From positions 1 to 9,933 of the IMG/VR virus record IMGVR_UViG_2634166457_000012: 9,933 bases of DNA. One strand, written 5' to 3'. Made by a program: the position numbers and the translations under genes. Positions within the stretch are counted from its first letter, which is position 1. Each line of letters opens with the position of its first letter. Positions 1 to 9,933 of the stretch are shown piece after piece. This stretch comes from a virus (lineage: Duplodnaviria; Heunggongvirae; Uroviricota; Caudoviricetes). The notes beneath the pieces were generated by a model. That model saw nothing but the letters and a program-made list of their open reading frames with translations. It did no database searches and was not told where the DNA came from.

Positions 1-385
1 AAATTTGATCCAGTAAGCACGGTTTTGGCCTTTTCGCCATTCTGTTGGCTCGGTTATTAGCATCAACAGCTTTGTAATAGCGTCTGCCCCGATTACGCTG
101 AACTTCACGTGAGATCGTCGAAGGACTGCGATTCAGCGCAGTAGCTATCGCACGAATGCTCATTTTGGCTGACAAACCAGCTCGTATCTCCTCGCGCTCA
201 GACAGTGTCAGGTGAGCTACAGCCCGCTTACGCTCATGGGGTTTTATGCCGCCAGTATCCCTTAACATAGTGAAGATCGTTCCGGGTTTTGAACCCAGGA
301 TATTCGCTATTTCACTGAAGCCTGTTCCGTTCTTCCATAGTTCAAAAACAGAGGCTTTTTCCTCTGCTGTAAATGTTCGTCTCAT
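1..385 (-). CDS. insI: IS30 transposase, N-terminal ~128 codons (C-terminus outside window)
   Basis: Minus-strand ATG at 385..383 preceded by GGAGG. Translation begins MRRTFTAEEKASVFELWKNGTGFSEIANILGSKPGTIFTMLRDTGG..., the helix-turn-helix N-terminus of IS30 transposase. Not in the ORF track because the frame runs off the window edge. Confidence 0.85.
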   Translation of the reverse strand, partial: MRRTFTAEEKASVFELWKNGTGFSEIANILGSKPGTIFTMLRDTGGIKPHERKRAVAHLTLSEREEIRAGLSAKMSIRAIATALNRSPSTISREVQRNRGRRYYKAVDANNRANRMAKRPKPCLLDQI

Positions 386-447
386 TCAAAAAACCTCCGC
401 AACCCCATGTTTTCACATAACTGTTGCGTTGACCAATTGAATCTACA
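1..447 (-). mobile_element. IS30 insertion sequence, partial (terminal inverted repeat plus 5' part of transposase gene; remainder lies beyond the window start)
   Basis: Reverse complement of 447..421 reads TGTAGATTCAATTGGTCAACGCAACAG, which I recognise as the IS30 terminal inverted repeat. It is followed by a GGAGG RBS and the transposase ATG. The element ends exactly where the gpD-like reading frame is broken (447/448). Confidence 0.88.
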
Positions 448-714
448 AGTGCCTTTTTCTGTCAGCGGTTCTCCTTTCCAGCCAATGAGAACCGTCAGGC
501 GCGCGCCCCGTGGCGGTAGCTGCAACTGACCATCCGCATCATCCAGCGTGATGGTGAGCTGGTCCGCCTCAAATCCTCGGTTGTCGGTCAGTGACAGGCT
601 CATCAGGCGCTCTGCCACGCCTGACAGCGTTTTACCCTCCGCAAGAATATCAAAATCCGGCATTTTCACGGGGTCTGTGCCCTGACTGAGCAATTGCATG
701 GTTGTGTCGGTCAT
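448..714 (-). pseudogene. D: P2 gpD-like tail/baseplate hub protein (late control gene D family), 5' fragment of ~89 codons truncated by IS30
   Basis: Minus-strand ATG at 714..712 with AGGGAGG RBS 6 nt upstream. Translation MTDTTMQLLSQGTDPVKMPDFDILAEGKTLSGVAERLMSLSLTDNRGFEADQLTITLDDADGQLQLPPRGARLTVLIGWKG carries the LTDNRGFEADQL-I-LDD motif typical of the phage gpD N-terminus. The frame reads into the IS30 end and stops at a TGA overlapping the transposase ATG. The track ORF 382..846 is this frame, over-extended upstream and read through into IS30. Confidence 0.6.
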
Positions 715-871
715 CTGTTCCCTCCCTGTGCGGCATGGTCGCATGTGCGTGCGGAGGGGGTTACTGCTTTTTGTTGTCGCCGTGGCGGGAGAATAGCGCA
801 GGGGTGAGATTACGCGCGTGGTGGGTGATGATTGTTGCTGAATCATTTAACGGATACAAGGGGCTGAAGCT
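715..871. promoter_or_regulatory. Divergent intergenic region between gpD-like (minus) and sheath FI (plus); presumed to carry promoters for both
   Basis: 157-bp non-coding gap between two divergently oriented starts, each with a good RBS. No confident -35/-10 pair and no P2 Ogr-type TGT-N12-ACA dyad found by eye. Confidence 0.3.
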
Positions 872-2056
872 ATGAGTGAAACTCGTTTTCATGGTGCCCG
901 TGTTACGGAAAATACCGACCTGGTAACAGCGATTAACGATGTTGATTCCAGCGTTATCGGTATCGTGGCAACGGCGGATGATGCGGACGCGAAGCTGTTC
1001 CCGCTGAACAAGCCCACACTGCTGACCCGCGTCAATGACGTGCTGGGAAAATGCGGGACAACGGGGACGCTTTATCGTGCGCTTAAGGCCATCGCAGACC
1101 AGGTGAGCACAAAGGTGATCGTCGTTCGCGTGGCTGAACACAAAGAAGAAGACGGAAAGACGCAGGATCAACTGGTTATCGGTGGTTCTGAGGATGATGG
1201 CAGCTATACGGGGATGTATGCGCTGCTTGTTGCAGAGCAGGATGAAAGCATCGGATACCGTCCGCGTATTCTGGCCGCGCCGGAGCTGGACACGGAGGCG
1301 GTGACAAAATCCCTGTGCGTGATTGCGGGTAAACTGCGCGCGTTTGTGTATGCCACATGTCATGGTTGTAACACGATGGCTGAGGCAATTACCTACCGCC
1401 AGAAATTCAACGAACGTGAGGTGATGCTCTTATGGCCGGACTTCATCGCCTACAACCCGAAAAGTGGCAAAAACGAAACGTTCCCCGCGCCTGCCTATGC
1501 GTGCGGCCTTCGTGCGTACATTGACCATGAGCAGGGCTGGCACAAATCACTGTCCAACGTTCCGGTTAAAAATGTGCTGGGGATGTCGAGGCATGTGTTC
1601 TGGTCGTTGCAGGCCGAAGACAGCGATGCCAACAGCCTCAATAATAAAGAAATCACGACCATTATTCGTCGCAACGGGTTCCGCTTCTGGGGCAACCGCA
1701 CACCGGAAACGAACGCCTACATCTTTGAGGTGTATACCCGAACCGCACAGGTGCTGGCTGATTCAATTGCGGAAGCGCAGTTTGAAACCATCGACAGTCC
1801 ACTGACGCCTGCGAATGTGAAGGATGTTATCAGTGCCATCAGGGCAAAACTGGATTCGCTGGTTACTGCCGGGAAACTGATTGGTGCGGAGTGCTGGTAT
1901 GACGTGGTGGATAACGGTACCACGAATTTACGTCAGGGACGTGTGCGTATTCGCTACAAATATACGCCTGTTCCCCCGCTGGAAGACATGGAGCTTTACC
2001 AGACGTTTACTGATGAATTCTTTGGTCCCGCATTTGCGGTGCTGGGAGGTGCCTGA
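872..2056 (+). CDS. FI: Contractile tail sheath protein (P2 gpFI family), 394 aa
   Basis: ATG 872 with AGGGG RBS ~8 nt upstream. Length and sequence character match myovirus sheath proteins of the P2 FI type (P2 FI is ~396 aa). Followed immediately by tube, chaperone, tape measure and gpU in the canonical order. Confidence 0.88.
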   Translation: MSETRFHGARVTENTDLVTAINDVDSSVIGIVATADDADAKLFPLNKPTLLTRVNDVLGKCGTTGTLYRALKAIADQVSTKVIVVRVAEHKEEDGKTQDQLVIGGSEDDGSYTGMYALLVAEQDESIGYRPRILAAPELDTEAVTKSLCVIAGKLRAFVYATCHGCNTMAEAITYRQKFNEREVMLLWPDFIAYNPKSGKNETFPAPAYACGLRAYIDHEQGWHKSLSNVPVKNVLGMSRHVFWSLQAEDSDANSLNNKEITTIIRRNGFRFWGNRTPETNAYIFEVYTRTAQVLADSIAEAQFETIDSPLTPANVKDVISAIRAKLDSLVTAGKLIGAECWYDVVDNGTTNLRQGRVRIRYKYTPVPPLEDMELYQTFTDEFFGPAFAVLGGA

Positions 2057-2568
2057 TGGCTGTACCAAAACATCTTCGCTTTTTTACGTTGTTTGTGGAT
2101 GGTGAAAACGAAGTGGGTAAAGTGACATCCGTCACGCCGCCCAAACTGACGCGCAAAACCGACAGCTATCGTGGTGGTGGCATGATGGGGGCGGTAAGTA
2201 TTGATCTCGGTCTGGACGACTCCGCGCTTGATGCGAGTTTTGTCATGGGGGGAGCTGTTCGTGCGCTGTTCCTTAAATATGGTGGCACGATTGACGGCAC
2301 GCTGCTGCGTTTTGCGGGTGAATACTACACCGATGCAGAAAGCGATCTGTATGAAATCGAGATGCGTGGGCGTGTGACGGAAATTGATATGGGGGAAGCC
2401 AAACAGGGCGAAGCCACATCACACACTTACGCTGTCAAAAACACCTACTACAAGCTGAGCGTTAACGATCGCCCGCTGTGGGAAATCGACCTGTTGAACC
2501 ACATCTACCGGAAGGACGGCAAGGACATTGTGCCTGACCGTATCCGTTCCGCGCTTGGGCTTGGCTGA
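2056..2568 (+). CDS. FII: Tail tube protein (P2 gpFII family), 170 aa
   Basis: ATG 2056 overlaps the FI stop (TGATG) and is preceded by GGGAGGTG. Size matches P2 FII (~172 aa) and it sits directly after the sheath gene. Confidence 0.88.
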   Translation: MAVPKHLRFFTLFVDGENEVGKVTSVTPPKLTRKTDSYRGGGMMGAVSIDLGLDDSALDASFVMGGAVRALFLKYGGTIDGTLLRFAGEYYTDAESDLYEIEMRGRVTEIDMGEAKQGEATSHTYAVKNTYYKLSVNDRPLWEIDLLNHIYRKDGKDIVPDRIRSALGLG

Positions 2569-2623
2569 TAAGTAATATGCAGGCGGCGCAGTGCGTCGCC
2601 TCTGACTGAAAAGGAGACAACTG

Positions 2624-2998
2624 ATGAAAGACATCGATACTGAAACCCGGAATAACACCGTGGCGGATGATGTGACGGCAGGTGAGGATATGGCTGTCGA
2701 ACGTGGCGTAAAACTGACCCGACCAATTGAGCGTGGTGGCGAAAAAATCACGTATGTGGAGATCACCGGGGCTATTGAGCAGGCTGGATCCCTGCGTGGT
2801 CTGTCGCTGTCTGATGTGCTGAATCTGAAAGCGGATACCATGTTCACGCTGTTGCCTCGCGTGACCTCGCCACGACTGGATGAAGTGATGATTAAAAAAA
2901 TGTCGTCACGCGATTTTATTCAGTTGTGCGCTGTGGCTGTAAATTTTATGAGCGAGCCAGACTCTGGCGCGAAGAGCGTGCAGGAGACGGCAGCGTAA
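2624..2998 (+). CDS. E: Tail assembly chaperone (P2 gpE-like), 124 aa, zero-frame product
   Basis: ATG 2624 with AAGGAG RBS at 2611..2616. Small acidic protein between tube and tape measure. Its 3' part is overlapped by a -1 frame ORF that runs to 3162, the hallmark of the E/E' (lambda G/GT-like) chaperone pair. Confidence 0.78.
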   Translation: MKDIDTETRNNTVADDVTAGEDMAVERGVKLTRPIERGGEKITYVEITGAIEQAGSLRGLSLSDVLNLKADTMFTLLPRVTSPRLDEVMIKKMSSRDFIQLCAVAVNFMSEPDSGAKSVQETAA

Positions 2999-3162
2999 TC
3001 ACCCTGGTGTGCTTTGAGCACATCGAAGATCTGGTGGCGGATATTGCCGCCATTTTTAACTGGTCGCCCGCCGAAATCTTCATGATGACGCCCGGCGAAG
3101 TGGTTAGCTGGCGTGAGCGGGCGGCACTTCGCAGCGGGAATGCAGACAATGAAGACTCTTGA
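2624..3162 (+). CDS. Tail assembly chaperone frameshift product E+E' (programmed -1 frameshift, predicted ~179 aa)
   Basis: The -1 frame is open from 2896 (after TAA at 2893..2895) to TGA at 3160..3162 and overlaps the last ~100 nt of E. A heptamer fitting X_XXY_YYZ in the E frame lies at 2941..2947. The E' stop overlaps the start of T. Confidence 0.55.
2941..2947 (+). other. Candidate -1 slippery heptamer A_AAT_TTT for the E/E' frameshift
   Basis: E-frame codons AAT(2942..2944) and TTT(2945..2947) preceded by A2941. A small hairpin GCCAG-ACT-CTGGC (2956..2968) lies 8 nt downstream. An alternative site is the A7 run at 2894..2900 (T_AAA_AAA), which is non-canonical. Confidence 0.4.
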
Positions 3163-5956
3163 CATCCGGGTCGCTTTCAGCGCCGTTGACAGGCTGACCC
3201 GGCCTGCCGAAAACGCCCGCCGCCTGATGGGGCAGTTTGGTGACTCCATCCAGCGAACGCAGGGGGCGATCAAAAATCTCGAGCGTCAGGCGCGTTCATT
3301 TGAGCGCGCCCGTGACGCTGTCAGTAAAGCGGATGCTGGCGTATTGAAAGCACGACGCCAGCTTAACGCCCTTAATCAGTTACAACGCACGGGTACAGTG
3401 CTCAGCGAAAAACAACAAAAGCTGATGCAGCAGTTAAGCACCCGGCTTGAACGCCTGAATGAATCGCGCACACGGGAAATTCAGAAAATGCGGGAACTTG
3501 GCGGAGAGCTGAAACGCCACGGCATTTCCCTGACAGGCAGCGATAACACCATCCAGCAGGCCATCAGACGCACCGAACAGTACAACAACCAGCTTGAACG
3601 CGAACGGCAGGCGCTTGCGCGTGTAACGCGGGCGCGTGAGCGGTATTCGCGCGCGCAGGAAACAGAGGGAAAACTGAAAACAGGTGGTGCACTGGCAATT
3701 GGTGCGGCAGCGGCGGGCGGCTATGCTGCCGGGCGTTTTTTGCAGCCTGCGATCGGGTTCGGCAAAGAGATGTCCTGCGTTCAGGCACTGACGCGAATCG
3801 ACAAAAACAGCCCGCAGTTTAAGGCGCTGCGTGAGCAGGCGTTAAAACTTGGCTCTGAAACACAGTTTACTGCGAGTGATGCCGCCAGTGGGCAGAGCTT
3901 TCTGGCAATGGCTGGTTTTACTCCTCAGGCCATTCAGGCCGCATTGCCCGGTGTTCTTAATATGGCGCTGGCAGGTGGCGTCGAACTCGGCGAGACGGCT
4001 GATATAGGCTCCAATATCCTCACACAGTTCAACCTGACAGCCGATCAAATGGACCGGGTTGGCGATACGCTGACAGCAGCATTCACCCGGACCAATACTG
4101 ATTTACGCGCGCTGGGCGAAACCATGAAGTATACCGGTCCGGTTGCCGCAAAACTTGGTATCAGTCTTGAAGAAGCGGCGGCCATGGCCGGGATGCTTGC
4201 CAATAATGGTCTTCGCGGAAGCGATGCGGGTACGGCCATGCGCGCAAGTCTGTCCCGCCTTGCATCACCGCCAAAAGCTGCGGCTGATGCACTGAAAGAG
4301 CTGGGGGTGTCAGTTGCTGACGCCAGAGGCAAAATGCGCCCAATGGAGGATGTGCTGCTTGATCTCTATAAGGCGACACAAAAATACGGACAGGTGGACC
4401 AGGTCTCCTTCTTCAAGGACATCGCCGGAGAAGAGGCGTTCGTTGGTTTGCAGACGCTTGTTGCGGCGGCTGGTTCAGGAGAACTGCAAAAACTGACCAG
4501 AGAATTGCAGGGGGCAAGGGGAGAGGCCGATCGCGTTGCAAAAGTAATGGCCGATAATCTTGATGGGGACCTGAAAAATCTCGACAGCGCATGGGAAGGT
4601 CTTCGTATTCGCATCAGTGATCTGGTTGACGGTCCGCTGCGTTCTGTCACGCAGTGGCTCACGCGGGTGCTTGAAAAAATCACCTCGCTGGCGCAGGCCC
4701 ATCCGGTACTGACGCGCCAGCTACTGATAGCAGGCGGTGCGTTGCTGGCAATGACTGCAACGATTGGCTCGTTGTCGCTGGTTATTGGGGTGCTTTACGG
4801 GAAGCTGGCCACCCTGCGTCTTGGTTTTGACATTCTTACCCGGTCAATGAATGTCGTCAGGGTGTTGCCTGCGCTGTGGGGAATGGTGACGGGTTCCGTT
4901 TCTTTACTGGGGGGCGCTATCGGGGCGTTGTTCAGTCCGGTTGGTCTTATTGTGGCTGCGCTCGCCGGAGCTGCCGTTCTCATCTGGAAATACTGGGATC
5001 CCATCAGGGCATTTTTTGCCGGGGTGTTCAGCGGGATTATGGAAAGGCTGACCCCGTTGCGCGAAACCTTTGAACGGTTTGGTCCTGTTTTTGACGCAAT
5101 CGGAAGCGGGATCAGCCAGGTGTTTAACTGGTTTAAATCGCTGCTGTCACCGATGGAGTCCAGCAAGGAAACGCTGGATAAATGTACCAGTGCTGGCGAG
5201 ATATTCGGTAACGTTCTTGGCGGTGCGTTACAGCTTGTTCTGACACCTGCAAAAATGTTGCTGGATACGCTGGCGTGGATACTTGAAAAGCTCGGTGTGC
5301 TTCCGGATGAAGCGGAAAGGGCGCGCAAGAAAATCGAAGACGCACAGCGTGCGGCCATTCTTCAGGATAAGGTTGCCTTGCTTCAGGGGGACCTGGCGAA
5401 AATCAATCCGCCGAAGCCTGTGGAAAATGGCAATGGTACCGGAGGTGATAAGCCCAAAGACAACAAACCGCTCACAGACAGCAATACCGGTACGCTACGC
5501 AGACTCAGCAAAATTGCTGATAACACAGGTAAGCTGGTTGATGAGACGAAAAAACGCATTGGCCCCGGCGATATTGTCTTTAAGAACCTGCCCCGCGCAC
5601 TTGCTGTTCGTGGGGAGTGGCAGGAGCGGAAGATTGCGCAGGTCAGTAAGCCTGCCCCCGCAATTAATATCACACCCGTGGTTCCGGCTCCGCTGTCTCC
5701 AGCGCTGGTCCCTGTTGTTGCGGCCAGCTCCCGCCCGGTGGCGGAGGCCATACGATCGCCAGTGGCATCAGTTCCTGCAACTTCCCGTAACCGGGAGCCT
5801 GTTGCCTCCGGATTTGGCGGTGAAATTCATGTTCATCTGCATAACGTTGTTACGCAGAATCCCCGCGAACTGGCGAAACTGGTCGGTGAAATGGTCAGGG
5901 CAGAATTGGAACGACGCGACCGTGCCGGACGTGGCAGTTTTTACGATAAAGATTGA
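3149..5956 (+). CDS. T: Tail tape measure protein (P2 gpT-like), ~935 aa
   Basis: Long ORF directly after E/E'. N-terminal third is coiled-coil-like and rich in R/E/Q/L. The middle has Gly/Ala-rich hydrophobic segments (e.g. LLIAGGALLAMTATIGSLSLVIGVLYG and GAIGALFSPVGLIVAALAGAAVLIW) typical of tape measure proteins. Start chosen at ATG 3149 (GGGA ~9 nt upstream); in-frame alternatives are ATG 3140 and GTG 3113 (the track start). Confidence 0.85.
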   Translation: MKTLDIRVAFSAVDRLTRPAENARRLMGQFGDSIQRTQGAIKNLERQARSFERARDAVSKADAGVLKARRQLNALNQLQRTGTVLSEKQQKLMQQLSTRLERLNESRTREIQKMRELGGELKRHGISLTGSDNTIQQAIRRTEQYNNQLERERQALARVTRARERYSRAQETEGKLKTGGALAIGAAAAGGYAAGRFLQPAIGFGKEMSCVQALTRIDKNSPQFKALREQALKLGSETQFTASDAASGQSFLAMAGFTPQAIQAALPGVLNMALAGGVELGETADIGSNILTQFNLTADQMDRVGDTLTAAFTRTNTDLRALGETMKYTGPVAAKLGISLEEAAAMAGMLANNGLRGSDAGTAMRASLSRLASPPKAAADALKELGVSVADARGKMRPMEDVLLDLYKATQKYGQVDQVSFFKDIAGEEAFVGLQTLVAAAGSGELQKLTRELQGARGEADRVAKVMADNLDGDLKNLDSAWEGLRIRISDLVDGPLRSVTQWLTRVLEKITSLAQAHPVLTRQLLIAGGALLAMTATIGSLSLVIGVLYGKLATLRLGFDILTRSMNVVRVLPALWGMVTGSVSLLGGAIGALFSPVGLIVAALAGAAVLIWKYWDPIRAFFAGVFSGIMERLTPLRETFERFGPVFDAIGSGISQVFNWFKSLLSPMESSKETLDKCTSAGEIFGNVLGGALQLVLTPAKMLLDTLAWILEKLGVLPDEAERARKKIEDAQRAAILQDKVALLQGDLAKINPPKPVENGNGTGGDKPKDNKPLTDSNTGTLRRLSKIADNTGKLVDETKKRIGPGDIVFKNLPRALAVRGEWQERKIAQVSKPAPAINITPVVPAPLSPALVPVVAASSRPVAEAIRSPVASVPATSRNREPVASGFGGEIHVHLHNVVTQNPRELAKLVGEMVRAELERRDRAGRGSFYDKD

Positions 5957-5962
5957 GGAGTC

Positions 5963-6457
5963 ATGGCCATGATGATGATCTACGGCATGTTTGTTTTTGA
6001 GTTGCGCACGTTGCCGCATCAGCAGTTACAGCAAAACAAAAGCTGGCGACATGTGAAAAATGAACGCGTTAACCGTTCGGCAAGCTGGCAGTATATCGGT
6101 GCAGGTGATGATCGCATCGTTCTTTCGGGTGTTCTTTATCCTGAGATTACAGGTGGCGAAGTGTCGCTGTCGTTGTTGACCACGCAGGCATATACAGGAC
6201 GCCCCTGGCCTCTGATTGATGGCGTCGGGCAGATTTACGGCATGTATGTACTGACTGAAACGAATACGACCCGCTCCGAGTTTGATCGCTACGGTAAGGC
6301 GAAAAAGATAGAATTTTCACTGACTCTTGAACGCTGTGATGAGGATTTGCGGGAGCGCCTGCAATCCTCATCGTTCAGCGATATGTTGTCCGGCTTCAAA
6401 GATAAGGTGACATCATCCCTTAACAGCGCGGCCAGCTCAGTTAAGGGGCTGCTCTGA
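5963..6457 (+). CDS. U: Tail protein gpU-like (P2 U family), ~162-164 aa
   Basis: Follows the tape measure by 6 nt. Size matches P2 gpU (~159 aa). GAGGAG at 5955..5960 is best spaced for the in-frame ATGs at 5969/5972, so the true start may be 6-9 nt downstream of the track start 5963. Confidence 0.8.
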   Translation: MAMMMIYGMFVFELRTLPHQQLQQNKSWRHVKNERVNRSASWQYIGAGDDRIVLSGVLYPEITGGEVSLSLLTTQAYTGRPWPLIDGVGQIYGMYVLTETNTTRSEFDRYGKAKKIEFSLTLERCDEDLRERLQSSSFSDMLSGFKDKVTSSLNSAASSVKGLL

Positions 6458-6467
6458 TTTAACGTAT

Positions 6468-6500
6468 GTCGCCAATTTCCTGATGAAGGTGACTGGCGAC
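6468..6500 (+). other. Inverted repeat GTCGCCA-N19-TGGCGAC just downstream of the gpU stop; possible weak terminator or processing hairpin
   Basis: Perfect 7-bp arms at 6468..6474 and 6494..6500, followed by TTGCTGTTGT. The long loop and poor U-tract make an intrinsic-terminator call weak. Confidence 0.25.
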
Positions 6501-6533
6501 TTGCTGTTGTATGTCCTTCTCAGAAAATTGTTT

Positions 6534-6562
6534 TTGAATAACAAATAACAGGATTTTATAAT
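6534..6562 (+). promoter_or_regulatory. Near-consensus sigma70 promoter for the acetyltransferase moron
   Basis: TTGAAT (6534..6539), 17-nt spacer, TATAAT (6557..6562). Predicted transcript start ~6569, about 45 nt upstream of the GTG start, in an AT-rich non-coding stretch. Confidence 0.55.
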
Positions 6563-6613
6563 CTCTTAACCTTATAACATGTGTGGTCTGAAATAATAAT
6601 TAAGGAGATTTTC

Positions 6614-7186
6614 GTGCTGTCTTACTTAATGGCAATTCACTTTGTTTTATTTGGGAACTCTACTAATTTAAAAAACTTCTGGAAACATGAAGTGATTCGG
6701 CGGAAACGTATGGATATCTGGAGGCTTTTAAGAGAGAAAAAGCAGCGTAACCGGAATTTCCTGTTCTGGTGGCGGTTGGCTAACGAAATGTATATTAATG
6801 GTAATAAATCACATAAGAAAGCAGCCAAAAAGTTAAACAGTAAAATAATTAACAAATTTGGTTGTGAAATAGGATTGGGAGCAAATATTGGAAAAGGGTT
6901 AACAATTCCCCATCATGCTGGAATTGTTGTTCATTTTGCTGTTGATGCGGGTGAAAATCTGGTATTACGACAGAATACTACCATTGGACAGATAGATGGT
7001 GACATGCCTGGTTCAAGAGTGAAAATTGGTAGTAACGTTGATATCGGAGCTAATTGTTGCATCATTGGATTATCACGTAAAATTGGGGATAATGTAAAAA
7101 TAGGTGCAATGTCTTTTATAAATAAAGATATACCATCAAACTGCACATATATAACTAAAAAGAGTGGTGTTGTATTGTATAAATAG
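6614..7186 (+). CDS. Hexapeptide-repeat (left-handed beta-helix) acetyltransferase, serine O-acetyltransferase (CysE/WcaB/NeuO-like) family; ~190 aa; AT-rich moron
   Basis: Translation contains the SAT-family signature GCEIGLGANIGKGLTIPHHAGIVVHFAVDAGENLVLRQNTTIG followed by further hexapeptide repeats (VKIGSNVDIGANCCIIG, KIGDNVKIGAMSFINKDIP). Start assigned to GTG 6614 because AAGGAG (6602..6607) lies 6 nt upstream; the track ATG 6581 has no RBS. Followed by a strong terminator. Confidence 0.72.
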   Translation: MLSYLMAIHFVLFGNSTNLKNFWKHEVIRRKRMDIWRLLREKKQRNRNFLFWWRLANEMYINGNKSHKKAAKKLNSKIINKFGCEIGLGANIGKGLTIPHHAGIVVHFAVDAGENLVLRQNTTIGQIDGDMPGSRVKIGSNVDIGANCCIIGLSRKIGDNVKIGAMSFINKDIPSNCTYITKKSGVVLYK

Positions 7187-7193
7187 AGTACAT

Positions 7194-7230
7194 AAAGCCA
7201 TCGATATTTCTGTCGATGGCTTTTTCTTTT
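7194..7230. terminator. Rho-independent terminator, shared by the convergent acetyltransferase (plus) and tfa (minus) transcripts
   Basis: Perfect stem AGCCATCGA (7196..7204) / TCGATGGCT (7213..7221) with 8-nt loop, then TTTTTCTTTT (7221..7230) on the plus strand. On the minus strand the same stem follows the tfa stop but has only a short U-tract (UUUAUG). Confidence 0.8.
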
Positions 7231-7808
7231 TATTGTGGGGCGACTGGCCACTCAACATCCGCTGCTACTGTTGTATCAACACGATTCAACAATACCCTAT
7301 ATGTCTTCCATGCAGCCAGTAACGATGCCTCTTCCTCCGTCGCAATATCCAAATCTACGGCATCCTGAAGTGGCGCAATATGCTCACTGGCTACCTGCAT
7401 CAGGCTGTTTTTTGTTTCTTCTGCCTCCCGTACCCGAAACAGTTTTTCTGCTTCTGCATCTTTCACCCAGGATGTGCCGTTCCACTTCTGACACTCTCCA
7501 TCCGGCGACAACCAGGTAACATTTTCCGGTAACGGACCGAGTTCAGAAATAAATAACGCGTCCCCTGATGCCACGTCATAAACCGTTTTACCCCGATGGT
7601 CTTCAACGAGATGCCACGATGCCTCATCACTGTTGAAAACAGCCACGAAGCCTGCCGGAATATCTGGTGGTGCAATATCGGTACTGTTTGCAGGCAGACC
7701 TGTATGAGGTGGAATGTATGCATCACCTTCCCCAATAAATTCATTAGTTCCGGCCAGCAGGTTATAAATTTTTATGGTCCGTGATTGTTCACTCATTCTG
7801 AAATCCAT
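7230..7808 (-). CDS. tfa: Tail fibre assembly protein (lambda Tfa / P2 gpG family), ~192 aa
   Basis: Translation ([97 protein letters not shown]...) is near-identical to phage lambda Tfa as I recall it. ATG 7808 with GAGGTG 5 nt upstream; the track start GTG 7814 is less likely. Confidence 0.9.
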
Positions 7809-7816
7809 GTTCACCT

Positions 7817-8719
7817 CTACTTAATATCAGAGACAGAATATTGTTTATTGAGCGTATGGGTGGGAGTACCAATAACGATGCTACTTCCGTGGCTATGTGC
7901 GCCAGAGGTGACATTACCTACGGGATTTTCTGGATTAATCCGGTGTATATGCGAACCAGGGCGAAAACGGTTATTAGCCTGATGTTGTATCAGTACATCA
8001 TCAGCCTGATGTTCAGGGTTAATACAGACTTGCCCGGAACGAGAGCAACACGTCCGATAATCGCCACATCCAATATATTTAGTATCCGCATAACGGCAAA
8101 CGGAATTACCCGGACAGTATGCATATGTGCCAAATACTGCCGACTGGCGAGATTGTGCGTATTCCCAGTTAATTGATTCTGTTTTTTTATTAAAGTTATC
8201 CCATGCCTGCTTCATCTGTCGGGCAACACTTTCAAACGGCACCTGACCACATCCGGCCCCCATTGCAGGGAATACCACTGTTTTTATTTTCATGTCTGTC
8301 GTTGCGTTTTTATTGTGTTGAAAGATGGCAAGCAGAGCGGCCCAGGTTGCGTTATATACAGCGTCTGTTCCGTCAATTGTCAACGGAACACGCATTGTTG
8401 GCGCATGTACCAGCCAGGGGTGATGATTATGCCCCGTTTCAATGACAAATGCAGAACCTACAGGCTGTTCGCCGAGATATTCACGAAGAATATGATTCTG
8501 AACGCGGGACTGTAACTGAGTACCGAAGAATGCGGTAATGGCGGCATCAACGCCACCATCCATCAAGCCGAAACTATTTGCCGCACTTACCATGCAGTCA
8601 AATTCTCTGATTGTTTCAAATGGCTTTCCGACAATATTCACACTATCTGCATTTGCAAATACCTGCTTAAATGCTTCAGCCATTTCTGTTACTGGTGCAG
8701 AAAGAATGAGCGTAATCAT
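7817..8719 (-). CDS. Macro-domain protein (predicted ADP-ribose-binding / ADP-ribosyl hydrolase) with Cys/His-rich C-terminal extension, 300 aa
   Basis: N-terminal ~180 aa carry macro-domain motifs in the correct order: [26 protein letters not shown] (compare VNAAN..L.GGGGVDGAIHRAAG), [25 protein letters not shown], and [22 protein letters not shown] (compare FPAISTGVYGYP). ATG 8719..8717 overlaps the stf stop (ATGA) with GAGG 5 nt upstream. Stop TAG 7819..7817 lies 8 nt before the tfa ATG. Coding call is strong; the functional call is from motif recognition only. Confidence 0.7.
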
Positions 8720-9933
8720 GCAAGCCTCACAATATAGTTAAATGCGATGTTTTTTACGGTGTTTTCTGCGTTACCCGTAGCGTTAACGGTGATGGTATGC
8801 CCGTGTGAACCTATCGCAACGGAGTGTGTGTGTGCGCCAATATTTACTGTGTGAGAGTGCCCCCCTGCGTTACTTGTTTTTCCAGTGCCAAGCCCTGAGT
8901 TATAACCAGCCGAAACACCATTACCAGCGCCAGTGTTGCCAACAGGAATATTGTGTGAATGATCCCCGGCGCTATTCGTGGTTTTAGTGCCATGGTTAAA
9001 TGAACTGGACGTCTTGGTGCCGTAGTCAAATGATGATGTGGTTTTTGTCCCCAAGTCCGTACTGGACGCGCTGGCACTGTGGGAGTGTGATTTAATGCCG
9101 TCCTGTTCCTGAGATAATACGGCCCGACCACTGGCGGGTTTGCCCTTAATCGTCCAGCCACGCATATCAGGGATCACACCAGACGGATAAGCGACTGCAA
9201 GCAGGGGGTAGACTGTTTTATCAAAAGTCTGCCCCTGCATAACGGTGTAGCCTGTAGGCACTGAATCAGAAGGCCACGGTATCGCCGCACCTACCGGAAA
9301 TGAATCTTGTGGCGTCCATGGTGTCCAGTCACCCGTTGAGTACTGGCTGCGGGTATAGCTTCTGGATGTGTCATACACATAGTAAATCTGTGTTATCCCG
9401 GCATTTTTAAGCACAACCAGTGTACCCGCAAAATTCTCCGGGTATTTCAGCGCTGCGCTTGTATTGGCATTCAATGGCTGATGGTACAGCCCCGGTGTTT
9501 TGTAATTATCCAGATTCTGATTTGCACCAATCTCAATACTCTGGCCGTTAAAAATATCCTGCGATGTAACATTGACATCATTGGCTAGTGATTTGCCATT
9601 AACCTTACGTCCAGAGGGCACACGCCCGTTTGCATTGTCATTAGCGGCTTTCACCGCTTTCGGAGTCGCGGCAAGCGTTTCAGAATCACTGTTAGTGACG
9701 CTACTGAGCTGGACTATTCCTTTTCGTGCCGTCGTGGCGTCCTGTGCGGTATATTTCCCGTTAGCAAGGTCATAGGCTGCCTTTACCGCCTTTGGTGTTG
9801 CCGCCAGCGTTTCTGAATCGCTGTTGGTGGCGCTACTGAGCTGGACTATTCCTTTTCGTGCCGTCGTGGCGTCCTGAGCGGTATATTTCCCGTTAGCAAG
9901 GTCATATGTTGCCTTTACCGCCTTTGGTGTTGC
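8716..9933 (-). CDS. stf: Side tail fibre protein (lambda Stf-like), C-terminal ~405 codons; N-terminus lies beyond the window end
   Basis: Frame is open to the window edge with no start codon. Contains 44-aa tandem repeats [34 protein letters not shown](A/V)TNSDSETLA characteristic of enterobacterial phage tail fibres. The His-rich C-terminus [28 protein letters not shown]...[11 protein letters not shown] matches the lambda Stf tip. The track ORF 8716..9654 is the same frame cut at an internal GTG. Confidence 0.9.
9655..9933 (-). repeat. Tandem direct repeats, period 132 bp (44 codons), at least 2 copies in window, within the stf coding region
   Basis: GCTACTGAGCTGGACTATTCC occurs at 9700 and again at 9832; GCCTTTACCGCCTTTGGTGTTGC at 9779 and 9911. 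Copies are near-identical over ~90 bp, and the copy nearest the C-terminal part is diverged at one end. Confidence 0.85.

Follow-up and report, generated by a model that had tools for sequence, protein, structure and literature searches.

We analyzed a stretch of viral DNA of 9,933 nt (hereafter the window; Caudoviricetes, IMG/VR record IMGVR_UViG_2634166457_000012, positions 1–9,933), in which the tail genes FI, FII, E/E′, T, and U run opposite to their orientation in phage P2. With a probability of about 0.9, the window is the tail end of a P88-like prophage (Xuanwuvirus, Peduoviridae) in its normal inherited gene order, which goes back to an ancestral in-place inversion. A large branch of Peduoviridae has long carried this layout as a fixed trait. 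The original prediction had favored an in-place inversion in this particular genome. This was refuted, as the plaque-forming phages P88 and Shae_phiSM have the same orientation, and so do 101 of 101 surveyed relatives. Its fallback, an undescribed native layout, was right in that the layout is native but not in that it is undescribed, because the layout is already known through public reference genomes of named genera.

The reversal of the FI-FII-E/E′-T-U block relative to P2 was borne out by the list of open reading frames (ORFs), by Pfam, and by tblastn against P2 (NC_001895). In the annotation of NC_001895, the order is H-G-fun(Z)-FI-FII-E/E′-T-U-D-ogr, on a single strand except for fun(Z). 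Homologues of the P2-type contractile tail module of Peduoviridae (FI, FII, E/E′, T, U, and D) were all found in the window, with D present only as an 89-codon stump. The canonical one-strand order H-G-FI-FII-E-T-U-D is absent from the window, where FI-U lie opposite to D and to H/tfa. All genes of the block are on the plus strand, and their amino acid identities to P2 were determined by tblastn. FI, the tail sheath gene (872–2056), matched Pfam Phage_sheath_1, Gp18_domIII_N, and Phage_sheath_1C, and its product is 98.5% identical to P88 FI and 45% identical to P2 FI. FII, the tail tube gene (2056–2568; Pfam Phage_tube, E-value 2e-45), showed 42% identity to P2 FII. E, encoding the tail assembly chaperone (2624–2998; weak match to Phage_TAC_7; phrog_103 “tail”, E-value 1e-36), showed 35% identity, and it overlaps E′, a −1-frame ORF at 2926–3162, over which relatives annotate a “GpE family phage tail protein”. 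The annotated −1 frameshift of E/E′ in P2 (NC_001895) lies at the position equivalent to this overlap; no obvious slippery site for E/E′ was found in the window. T, the tape measure gene (3149–5956; Pfam PhageMin_Tail, E-value 2e-56), has an ORF open from 3113, and relatives annotate its start at 3149; its product is 94–99% identical to those of relatives and 33% identical to P2 T. U (5963–6457; Pfam Phage_P2_GpU, E-value 6e-39) encodes a tail protein, is the last gene of the inverted block, and showed 46% identity to P2 U.

The surroundings of the block were also as previously described. D (minus strand, start at 714) and FI (plus strand, start at 872) are separated by 157 bp. The ORF had been correctly called gpD-like, since residues 19–88 of the stump are 59% identical to P2 D (tblastn, E-value 1e-23), and it is thus not unrelated to P2 D. 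At the other end of the block, the minus-strand genes of the fiber side (tfa, a macro-domain ORF, and H) converge with U and the adjacent moron, with a bidirectional terminator at 7194–7223 between them.

Megablast against phage genomes aligned window positions 447–6463 with eight Xuanwuvirus records (P88, P884B11, Shae_phiSM, 520873, 500465-2, 503458, PhiR44_2, and Chuche) at 90–95% nucleotide identity. All eight genomes stop matching at 6463/6464, so the right edge of the conserved block lies at 6463, six bases past the U stop codon. This does not agree with the right breakpoint at ~7187–7230 that had been proposed, because the P88-type similarity has already ended there. P88 (Xuanwuvirus P88, NC_026014) and Shae_phiSM (Citrobacter, OR565851) are 92–95% identical to the window over 447–6463 and share its gene order, its strands, and the 157-bp D|FI spacer together with the sequence dyad described below. 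In both annotated genomes, ogr and D lie on one strand and FI-FII-E-T-U on the other, followed by a DNA invertase, the fiber genes, and I, J, W, and V on the D strand. P88 is mitomycin-inducible and plaque-forming, and its virions with head and tail were imaged by electron microscopy (PMC5285337). phiSM, whose release is spontaneous, also forms plaques and can lysogenise E. coli K-12 (PMC6456863). The alignment to related genomes, which had been suggested as a check, therefore revealed that intact phages with functional tails consistently share this orientation. Since related plaque-forming phages have it, the orientation is a trait of the lineage and not a rearrangement of this genome. The Xuanwuvirus gene order, with ogr-D divergent from FI..U and FI..U convergent with H-I-J, was recognized in the window. 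The genus criterion of the International Committee on Taxonomy of Viruses is ~70% nucleotide identity across the genome; the window covers only 10 kb of the prophage, of which 6464–9600 is not P88-like.

The distribution of the layout was determined in a survey of loci that encode relatives of the window FI, 57 of them from one genome per bacterial species (GTDB representatives) and 80 from IMG/VR. On each locus, D, FI, FII, T, U, I, J, ogr, and the invertase were placed by tblastn. All 101 fetched loci with an FI at least 69% identical and a D match carried the inverted layout. Among the species-representative loci with FI at this level of identity, D was on the minus strand directly upstream of FI in 23 of 23, and I/J were convergent downstream of U in all 22 that include I/J. 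The hosts of these 23 loci were Salmonella, Citrobacter, Edwardsiella, Enterobacter, Kosakonia, Symbiopectobacterium, Mixta, Pantoea, Erwinia, Izhakiella, Trabulsiella, Kluyvera, and Serratia. The same arrangement was found in 78/78 IMG/VR loci with a D match. Loci with a P2-type FI (at most 50% identical) and a D match kept the P2 order (31/31). The D|FI junction itself (window 448–1150; at least 90% identity, at least 80% coverage) was present in 1,355 of 5,426 complete E. coli genomes, about a quarter. The inverted layout also occurs in the deposited phages phiT5282H (Novemvirus), 3LV2017 (Reginaelenavirus), and SEN5 (Senquatrovirus). In phiT5282H, 3LV2017, and SEN4/SEN5, the D|FI spacer is 153–157 bp long and has a single dyad, but FI is only 55–75% identical to the window FI (55% in SEN5), and the hosts and cargo genes are different.

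Next, we considered how the layout arose. The FI-U proteins of P88 are 33–46% identical to those of P2, and the flanking proteins are 37–54% identical (D 49%, V 46%, W 44%, J 54%, R 40%, L 38%, and M 37%). Because the divergence of FI-U falls in the same range as that of the flanks, an inversion in situ fits better than modular replacement, in which a sheath-to-U module from a different phage would have been inserted in the opposite orientation with no inversion. Phage genomes are mosaic, and the fiber end of the same locus appears clearly exchanged, which would speak for such a replacement; however, the FI-side promoter geometry is like that of P2 pF, and D and U keep P2-like sequence nearly to the junctions. 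A foreign-module origin of FI-U was rated unlikely on the comparison of FI-U with flank divergence.

A recent in-place inversion of FI..U, together with the moron, in this genome has very little probability left. Compared with P2, the block is turned around exactly between D and the fiber genes, as such an event would leave it, but the same orientation in all surveyed relatives, the 157-bp D|FI spacer in P88, phiSM, and Xuanwuvirus-type relatives, and the junction in the E. coli genomes counted above contradict a recent origin. Moreover, most relatives with this orientation are without the moron, and the junctions are without repeats. Inverted repeats or recombinase sites at both junctions, which had been suggested as a check, were not found: no inverted repeats pair the junctions (715–871 versus 6458–7230), and only short pairs of chance quality occur in the window.

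Hardly more credible is a programmed invertible segment of the Gin/Cin/Hin type that flips FI..U within populations. P88-type phages do have a serine DNA invertase directly after U, and reversible inversion has been reported for P88-like prophages, but the reported switch concerns the fiber gene GpH and not FI-U (bioRxiv 10.1101/2022.05.07.487787). The crossover-like cores AAACC-NN-GGTTT of P88 (positions 8900 and 11971 of locus L001) both lie past U and bound the fiber segment only, and the other orientation was seen in 0 of 101 relatives. In the window, neither an invertase ORF (ORF list and Pfam) nor an AAACC-NN-GGTTT core of the Gin/Cin/Hin type (one mismatch allowed) was found. A misjoined contig is the least credible explanation of all: none of the results speaks for it, and the same junctions recur both in chromosomes assembled to closure and in phage genomes that were sequenced independently.

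We infer a single ancient inversion, by which the FI-FII-E/E′-T-U block would have been inverted in place in an ancestor of this P2-related branch, with one breakpoint immediately upstream of the late promoter of FI and the other between U and D. Once fixed, it would have left the head, lysis, and baseplate genes, H, and tfa on one strand, with FI..U convergent with them and with D and ogr divergent from FI.

This arrangement raises the question of how D is expressed. The original prediction held that the inversion would uncouple D from the promoter of the FI operon. Late promoters dependent on Ogr, Delta, or B are activated by a phage-encoded zinc-finger protein of the Ogr family and have a TGT-N12-ACA dyad as consensus, centered ~55 nt upstream of the transcription start. 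The divergent D|FI control region of the window (715–871, 157 bp) contains an activator-type dyad, TGTCGCCGTGGCGGGAGA, at 775–792, which is part of an extended motif, TTTGTTGT-N12-AGAA, at 770–793, and a −10-like element, GATGAT, on the FI side at 827–832. When 24 distinct D|FI spacers from diverged hosts were aligned, the TTTTTGTTGTC core was the most strongly conserved block and was near-invariant, with the rest variable and −10-like elements conserved on both sides of the spacer. Each spacer of five representative phages contained exactly one TGT-N12-ACA-like dyad at a conserved offset, with its center 68.5–76.5 nt from the ATG of D and 81.5–88.5 nt from the ATG of FI. The dyad is exact in SEN5 (TGTTGCAGGTTGCTGACA) and 3LV2017 (TGTGGCAGGCCGGTCACA) and has AGA for ACA in the window, P88, and phiT5282H. 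The sole exact TGT-N12-ACA match in the window lies inside the macro-domain ORF, which is below chance expectation. As the spacer dyad is one mismatch off, we relied on its conservation across genera and on its geometry instead.

The geometry agrees with that of P2. Its late activator is of the Ogr type, and the TGT-N12-ACA-type site that precedes its FI gene is spaced as in the window. The annotated activator site of P2 pF is centered 82.5 nt from the FI start codon (NC_001895). A single annotated activator site in P2 serves the divergent promoters pP and pO, with distances of 78.5 nt and 95.5 nt to the respective start codons, and the pP and pO transcription starts are 64–66 nt from the half-site ends (NC_001895). 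The extended motif, TTTGTTGT-N12-AGAA, occurs just twice in the 45.5-kb locus of the E. coli Z1323HEC0462 prophage (L004), once in the D|FI spacer and once in the O|P spacer. The latter copy (36553–36576) is flanked by the scaffold gene (O) and the terminase gene (P), which are divergent. Because the motif was defined from the D|FI site, only the O|P occurrence is an independent test. The O|P copy suggests that the late-activator consensus of the lineage ends in AGA and not in ACA. An ogr homologue follows D in relatives; in the prophage of the window, it would be located past the IS30 element described below. A generic sigma-70 scan of the D|FI spacer gave no convincing promoter, as expected because late promoters are activator-dependent.

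The loss of late control over D is therefore probably not what happened, given a conserved Ogr-type dyad between D and FI in the geometry of P2 pP/pO. The inversion would have brought D next to the FI promoter, with the dyad-symmetric Ogr-type activator site of this promoter lying between D and FI. This single site (775–792) would then drive two divergent late promoters, one for FI-U and one for D, like P2 pP/pO. The predicted transcription starts are at ~840 on the plus strand for FI-U, 8 nt after GATGAT, and at ~728 on the minus strand for D. That one activator site drives both FI-U and D late in infection is, in our estimate, slightly favored. For the further step, that the inversion was tolerated and then fixed in at least four genera because a two-way promoter arose, as a second instance of the pP/pO design in the same genome, we consider the chances to be even.

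Several points weigh against this interpretation of the window. The bidirectional-promoter step in the lineage is drawn from motif conservation and geometry alone, and the window dyad is one mismatch from TGT-N12-ACA; such a match within 157 bp is not rare by chance. The predicted leader of D is only ~14 nt long, and the −10-like hexamer on its side, GACCAT, is weak. A single origin of the inversion would follow from the clean split in FI identity. The distal part of D and ogr fall outside the window, which thus covers only part of the evidence on the intactness of this copy. Finally, a distant P2-type cluster in an Asticcacaulis metagenome-assembled genome (L040, 5843–15500) has another rearrangement, with FI-FII-U-D on one strand followed by convergent I and J. 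Since this rearrangement is a different one, tail-module inversions have happened more than once.

The left end of the window is the left end of an IS30 element inside gene D (1–447, minus strand), with the N-terminus of the transposase at 2–385 and a terminal inverted repeat that ends in GAATCTACA at 447. All phage matches of the window begin at this position. The first 89 codons of D (P2 gpD, baseplate hub/“late control D”) follow at 448–714 on the minus strand (phrog_52 “tail protein”, E-value 5e-32), and this stump is 100% identical to residues 1–89 of P88 D. NCBIfam gave only sub-threshold matches for the 128-residue IS30 fragment, so the identity of the element rests on its nucleotide identity to an annotated copy: window 1–470 is 99.8% identical to 15001–15471 of the E. 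coli MEI003 locus L003, which overlaps a coding sequence annotated as “IS30-like element IS30 family transposase”. The D gene of MEI003 is interrupted by IS30 at exactly this base, and a 2-bp AG duplication flanks the insertion. The features of an IS30 insertion, namely transposase, terminal inverted repeat, and 2-bp duplication, were thus all found, the duplication being seen in MEI003 and one end of the element lying within the window. The IMG/VR contig L134 contains the same D split. As the same insertion is present in MEI003 and L134, an IS30-disrupted sublineage of the prophage is circulating. D is full length (366 amino acid residues) in P88 and in the closest relative of the window, Z1323HEC0462. 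D is an essential tail gene in P2, and the prophage is for this reason probably unable to build tails. The IS30 cut would probably abolish tail assembly unless IS30 is lost, and this copy is probably defective.

The closest relative, the prophage of E. coli Z1323HEC0462 (NZ_CP148331, L004), is 99.0% identical over 447–9933, including the acetyltransferase/tfa/macro/H cassette, but differs from the window in having no IS30 and an intact D. E. coli MEI003 (NZ_CP071263, L003) has the identical IS30 insertion in D, but its identity is 95.5% and its H tip is different. No complete E. coli genome in the collection matched the whole window at 99% or more. Unlike the window, P88 and Shae_phiSM have an intact 366-residue D, and a serine invertase with an invertible H′/tfa′ segment after U; conversely, D of the window is interrupted by IS30, the invertase is missing, and an acetyltransferase moron, a macro-domain gene, and another H tip and tfa are present. 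P2 (Peduovirus P2, NC_001895) has homologous D, FI, FII, E/E′, T, U, H, and G (33–59% amino acid identity, higher in the conserved part of H). It differs from the window in that its FI-U-D form one operon on the H-G strand, whereas D of the window is divergent from FI.

Further P88-type loci of note were observed among the surveyed sequences. A P88-type prophage with an FI 97% identical to that of the window was found in L007 (NZ_JBQPOM010000071.1), a sequence labelled Vagococcus sp. WN89Y, a Firmicute; the contig is most likely an enterobacterial one that was mislabelled or entered as a contaminant. The P88-type tail clusters of Symbiopectobacterium (L057, L025, and L026) have FI or D split by insertions or frameshifts, a state that fits the decay of prophages in the genomes of insect symbionts.

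The interval between U and the fiber genes (window 6458–7229; L001 8216–10955) is a variable cargo slot. In the window, it holds a moron (6534–7223, plus strand) that stands out in the profile of guanine-plus-cytosine content by its low value (34–35%). The moron has a sigma-70-like promoter (TTGAAT-17-TATAAT, 6534–6562) and ends in the strong bidirectional terminator (7194–7223), which has a 13-bp stem. It encodes a hexapeptide-repeat O-acetyltransferase (6614–7186, plus strand; ORF open from 6581) that matched Pfam Hexapep; matches to EpsC, CysE, and WcaB were all sub-threshold, and a PADLOC search with this protein gave no match. A possible role of the acetyltransferase is lysogenic conversion through modification of surface polysaccharide. 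Its gene also adjoins stf/tfa in the 80–100-kb phages JL22 and vB_EcoM-Ro157c2YLVW.

The moron had been included in the inverted block, but its distribution among relatives places it outside, as close relatives have an invertase, nothing, or an acetyltransferase at this site. The whole U-fiber interval was available from 61 relatives: it contains the invertase in 18 and the acetyltransferase in 14, in one case together with the macro gene, and the remaining 29 have neither. Because only 14 of the 61 have the acetyltransferase, the moron was acquired after the inversion. Among complete E. coli genomes, 495 contain the U/acetyltransferase/tfa junction of the window and 54 the arrangement of the entire window. 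The Xuanwuvirus-type invertase with an invertible fiber segment after U, which not all close relatives have either, is absent from the window. As read from the sequence, the serine invertase and invertible fiber segment of P88 are replaced here by the acetyltransferase/tfa/macro-domain cassette, and the host-range switch is lost.

An unusual arrangement was observed in IMG/VR record IMGVR_UViG_2654587728_000014 (L121, 3535–10681). T residues 1–443 lie on the plus strand; next come a minus-strand invertase, a fiber-like segment, and a second invertase allele on the plus strand, and finally U and T residues 443–935 on the minus strand, which are only 86% identical. It looks as if either two resident P88-like prophages of opposite orientation had recombined within T or the assembly were chimeric.

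The fiber end of the window begins with a tfa/gpG-like tail fiber assembly gene (7230–7814, minus strand; likely start at 7808; Pfam Caudo_TAP, E-value 4e-40), which is annotated as tfa in MEI003 and Z1323HEC0462. A macro-domain protein of 300 residues is encoded between H and tfa (7817–8719, minus strand; Pfam Macro, E-value 1e-18; phrog_2613, E-value 4e-146). Its ORF, which was missing from the earlier description of the window, has a start that overlaps the H stop codon. It is annotated as “macro domain-containing protein” in E. coli relatives, only some of the relatives having the gene. The macro core, of the ADP-ribose-binding/hydrolase type, also matches phrog_14717, a PHROG annotated as tail protein, and PADLOC gave only a negligible DarG match for the protein (E-value 0.007). 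Counter-defense, a fiber accessory function, or a fiber-attached domain are possible roles.

H, the tail fiber gene, is present with its C-terminal part and runs off the window (8716–9933, minus strand; Collar/Phage_fiber domains at 8716–9654). The conserved part of H showed 79–85% match to P88 and P2 H, and its distal part is unlike P88 and resembles lambdoid stf genes. Together, the H tip and tfa differ from those of P88 and are closer to stf/tfa genes of lambdoid phages and large myoviruses, and by this comparison the fiber end has clearly been exchanged.

In the literature on Xuanwuvirus, P88, and Peduoviridae, no explicit description of an FI-U inversion was found; the 2016 work of Casjens and Grose, in which subclusters of P2-like phages were reportedly defined, may hold one. 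The published accounts of P88, phiSM (PMC5285337 and PMC6456863, respectively), SEN4/5, and Serratia PP4/KSP20 mention neither the inversion nor the D|FI control region. As the layout is standard in four named phage genera, it carries little weight as a discovery. It means that the P2 gene order belongs to P2 and its close genera and is not a family-wide rule, so that neither annotation pipelines nor assessments of prophage integrity should report this layout as rearranged. For this prophage, what is practically relevant is that the tail gene D is cut, the host-range module swapped, and the invertase switch lost. The apparent bidirectional use of a single late-activator site is only a mildly new point. 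The conserved D|FI dyad offers a small, testable point on how P2-type late control adapts to operon rearrangement, and fixation of the inversion through a two-way promoter, if true, would be a natural case of an operon-splitting inversion rescued by promoter symmetry.

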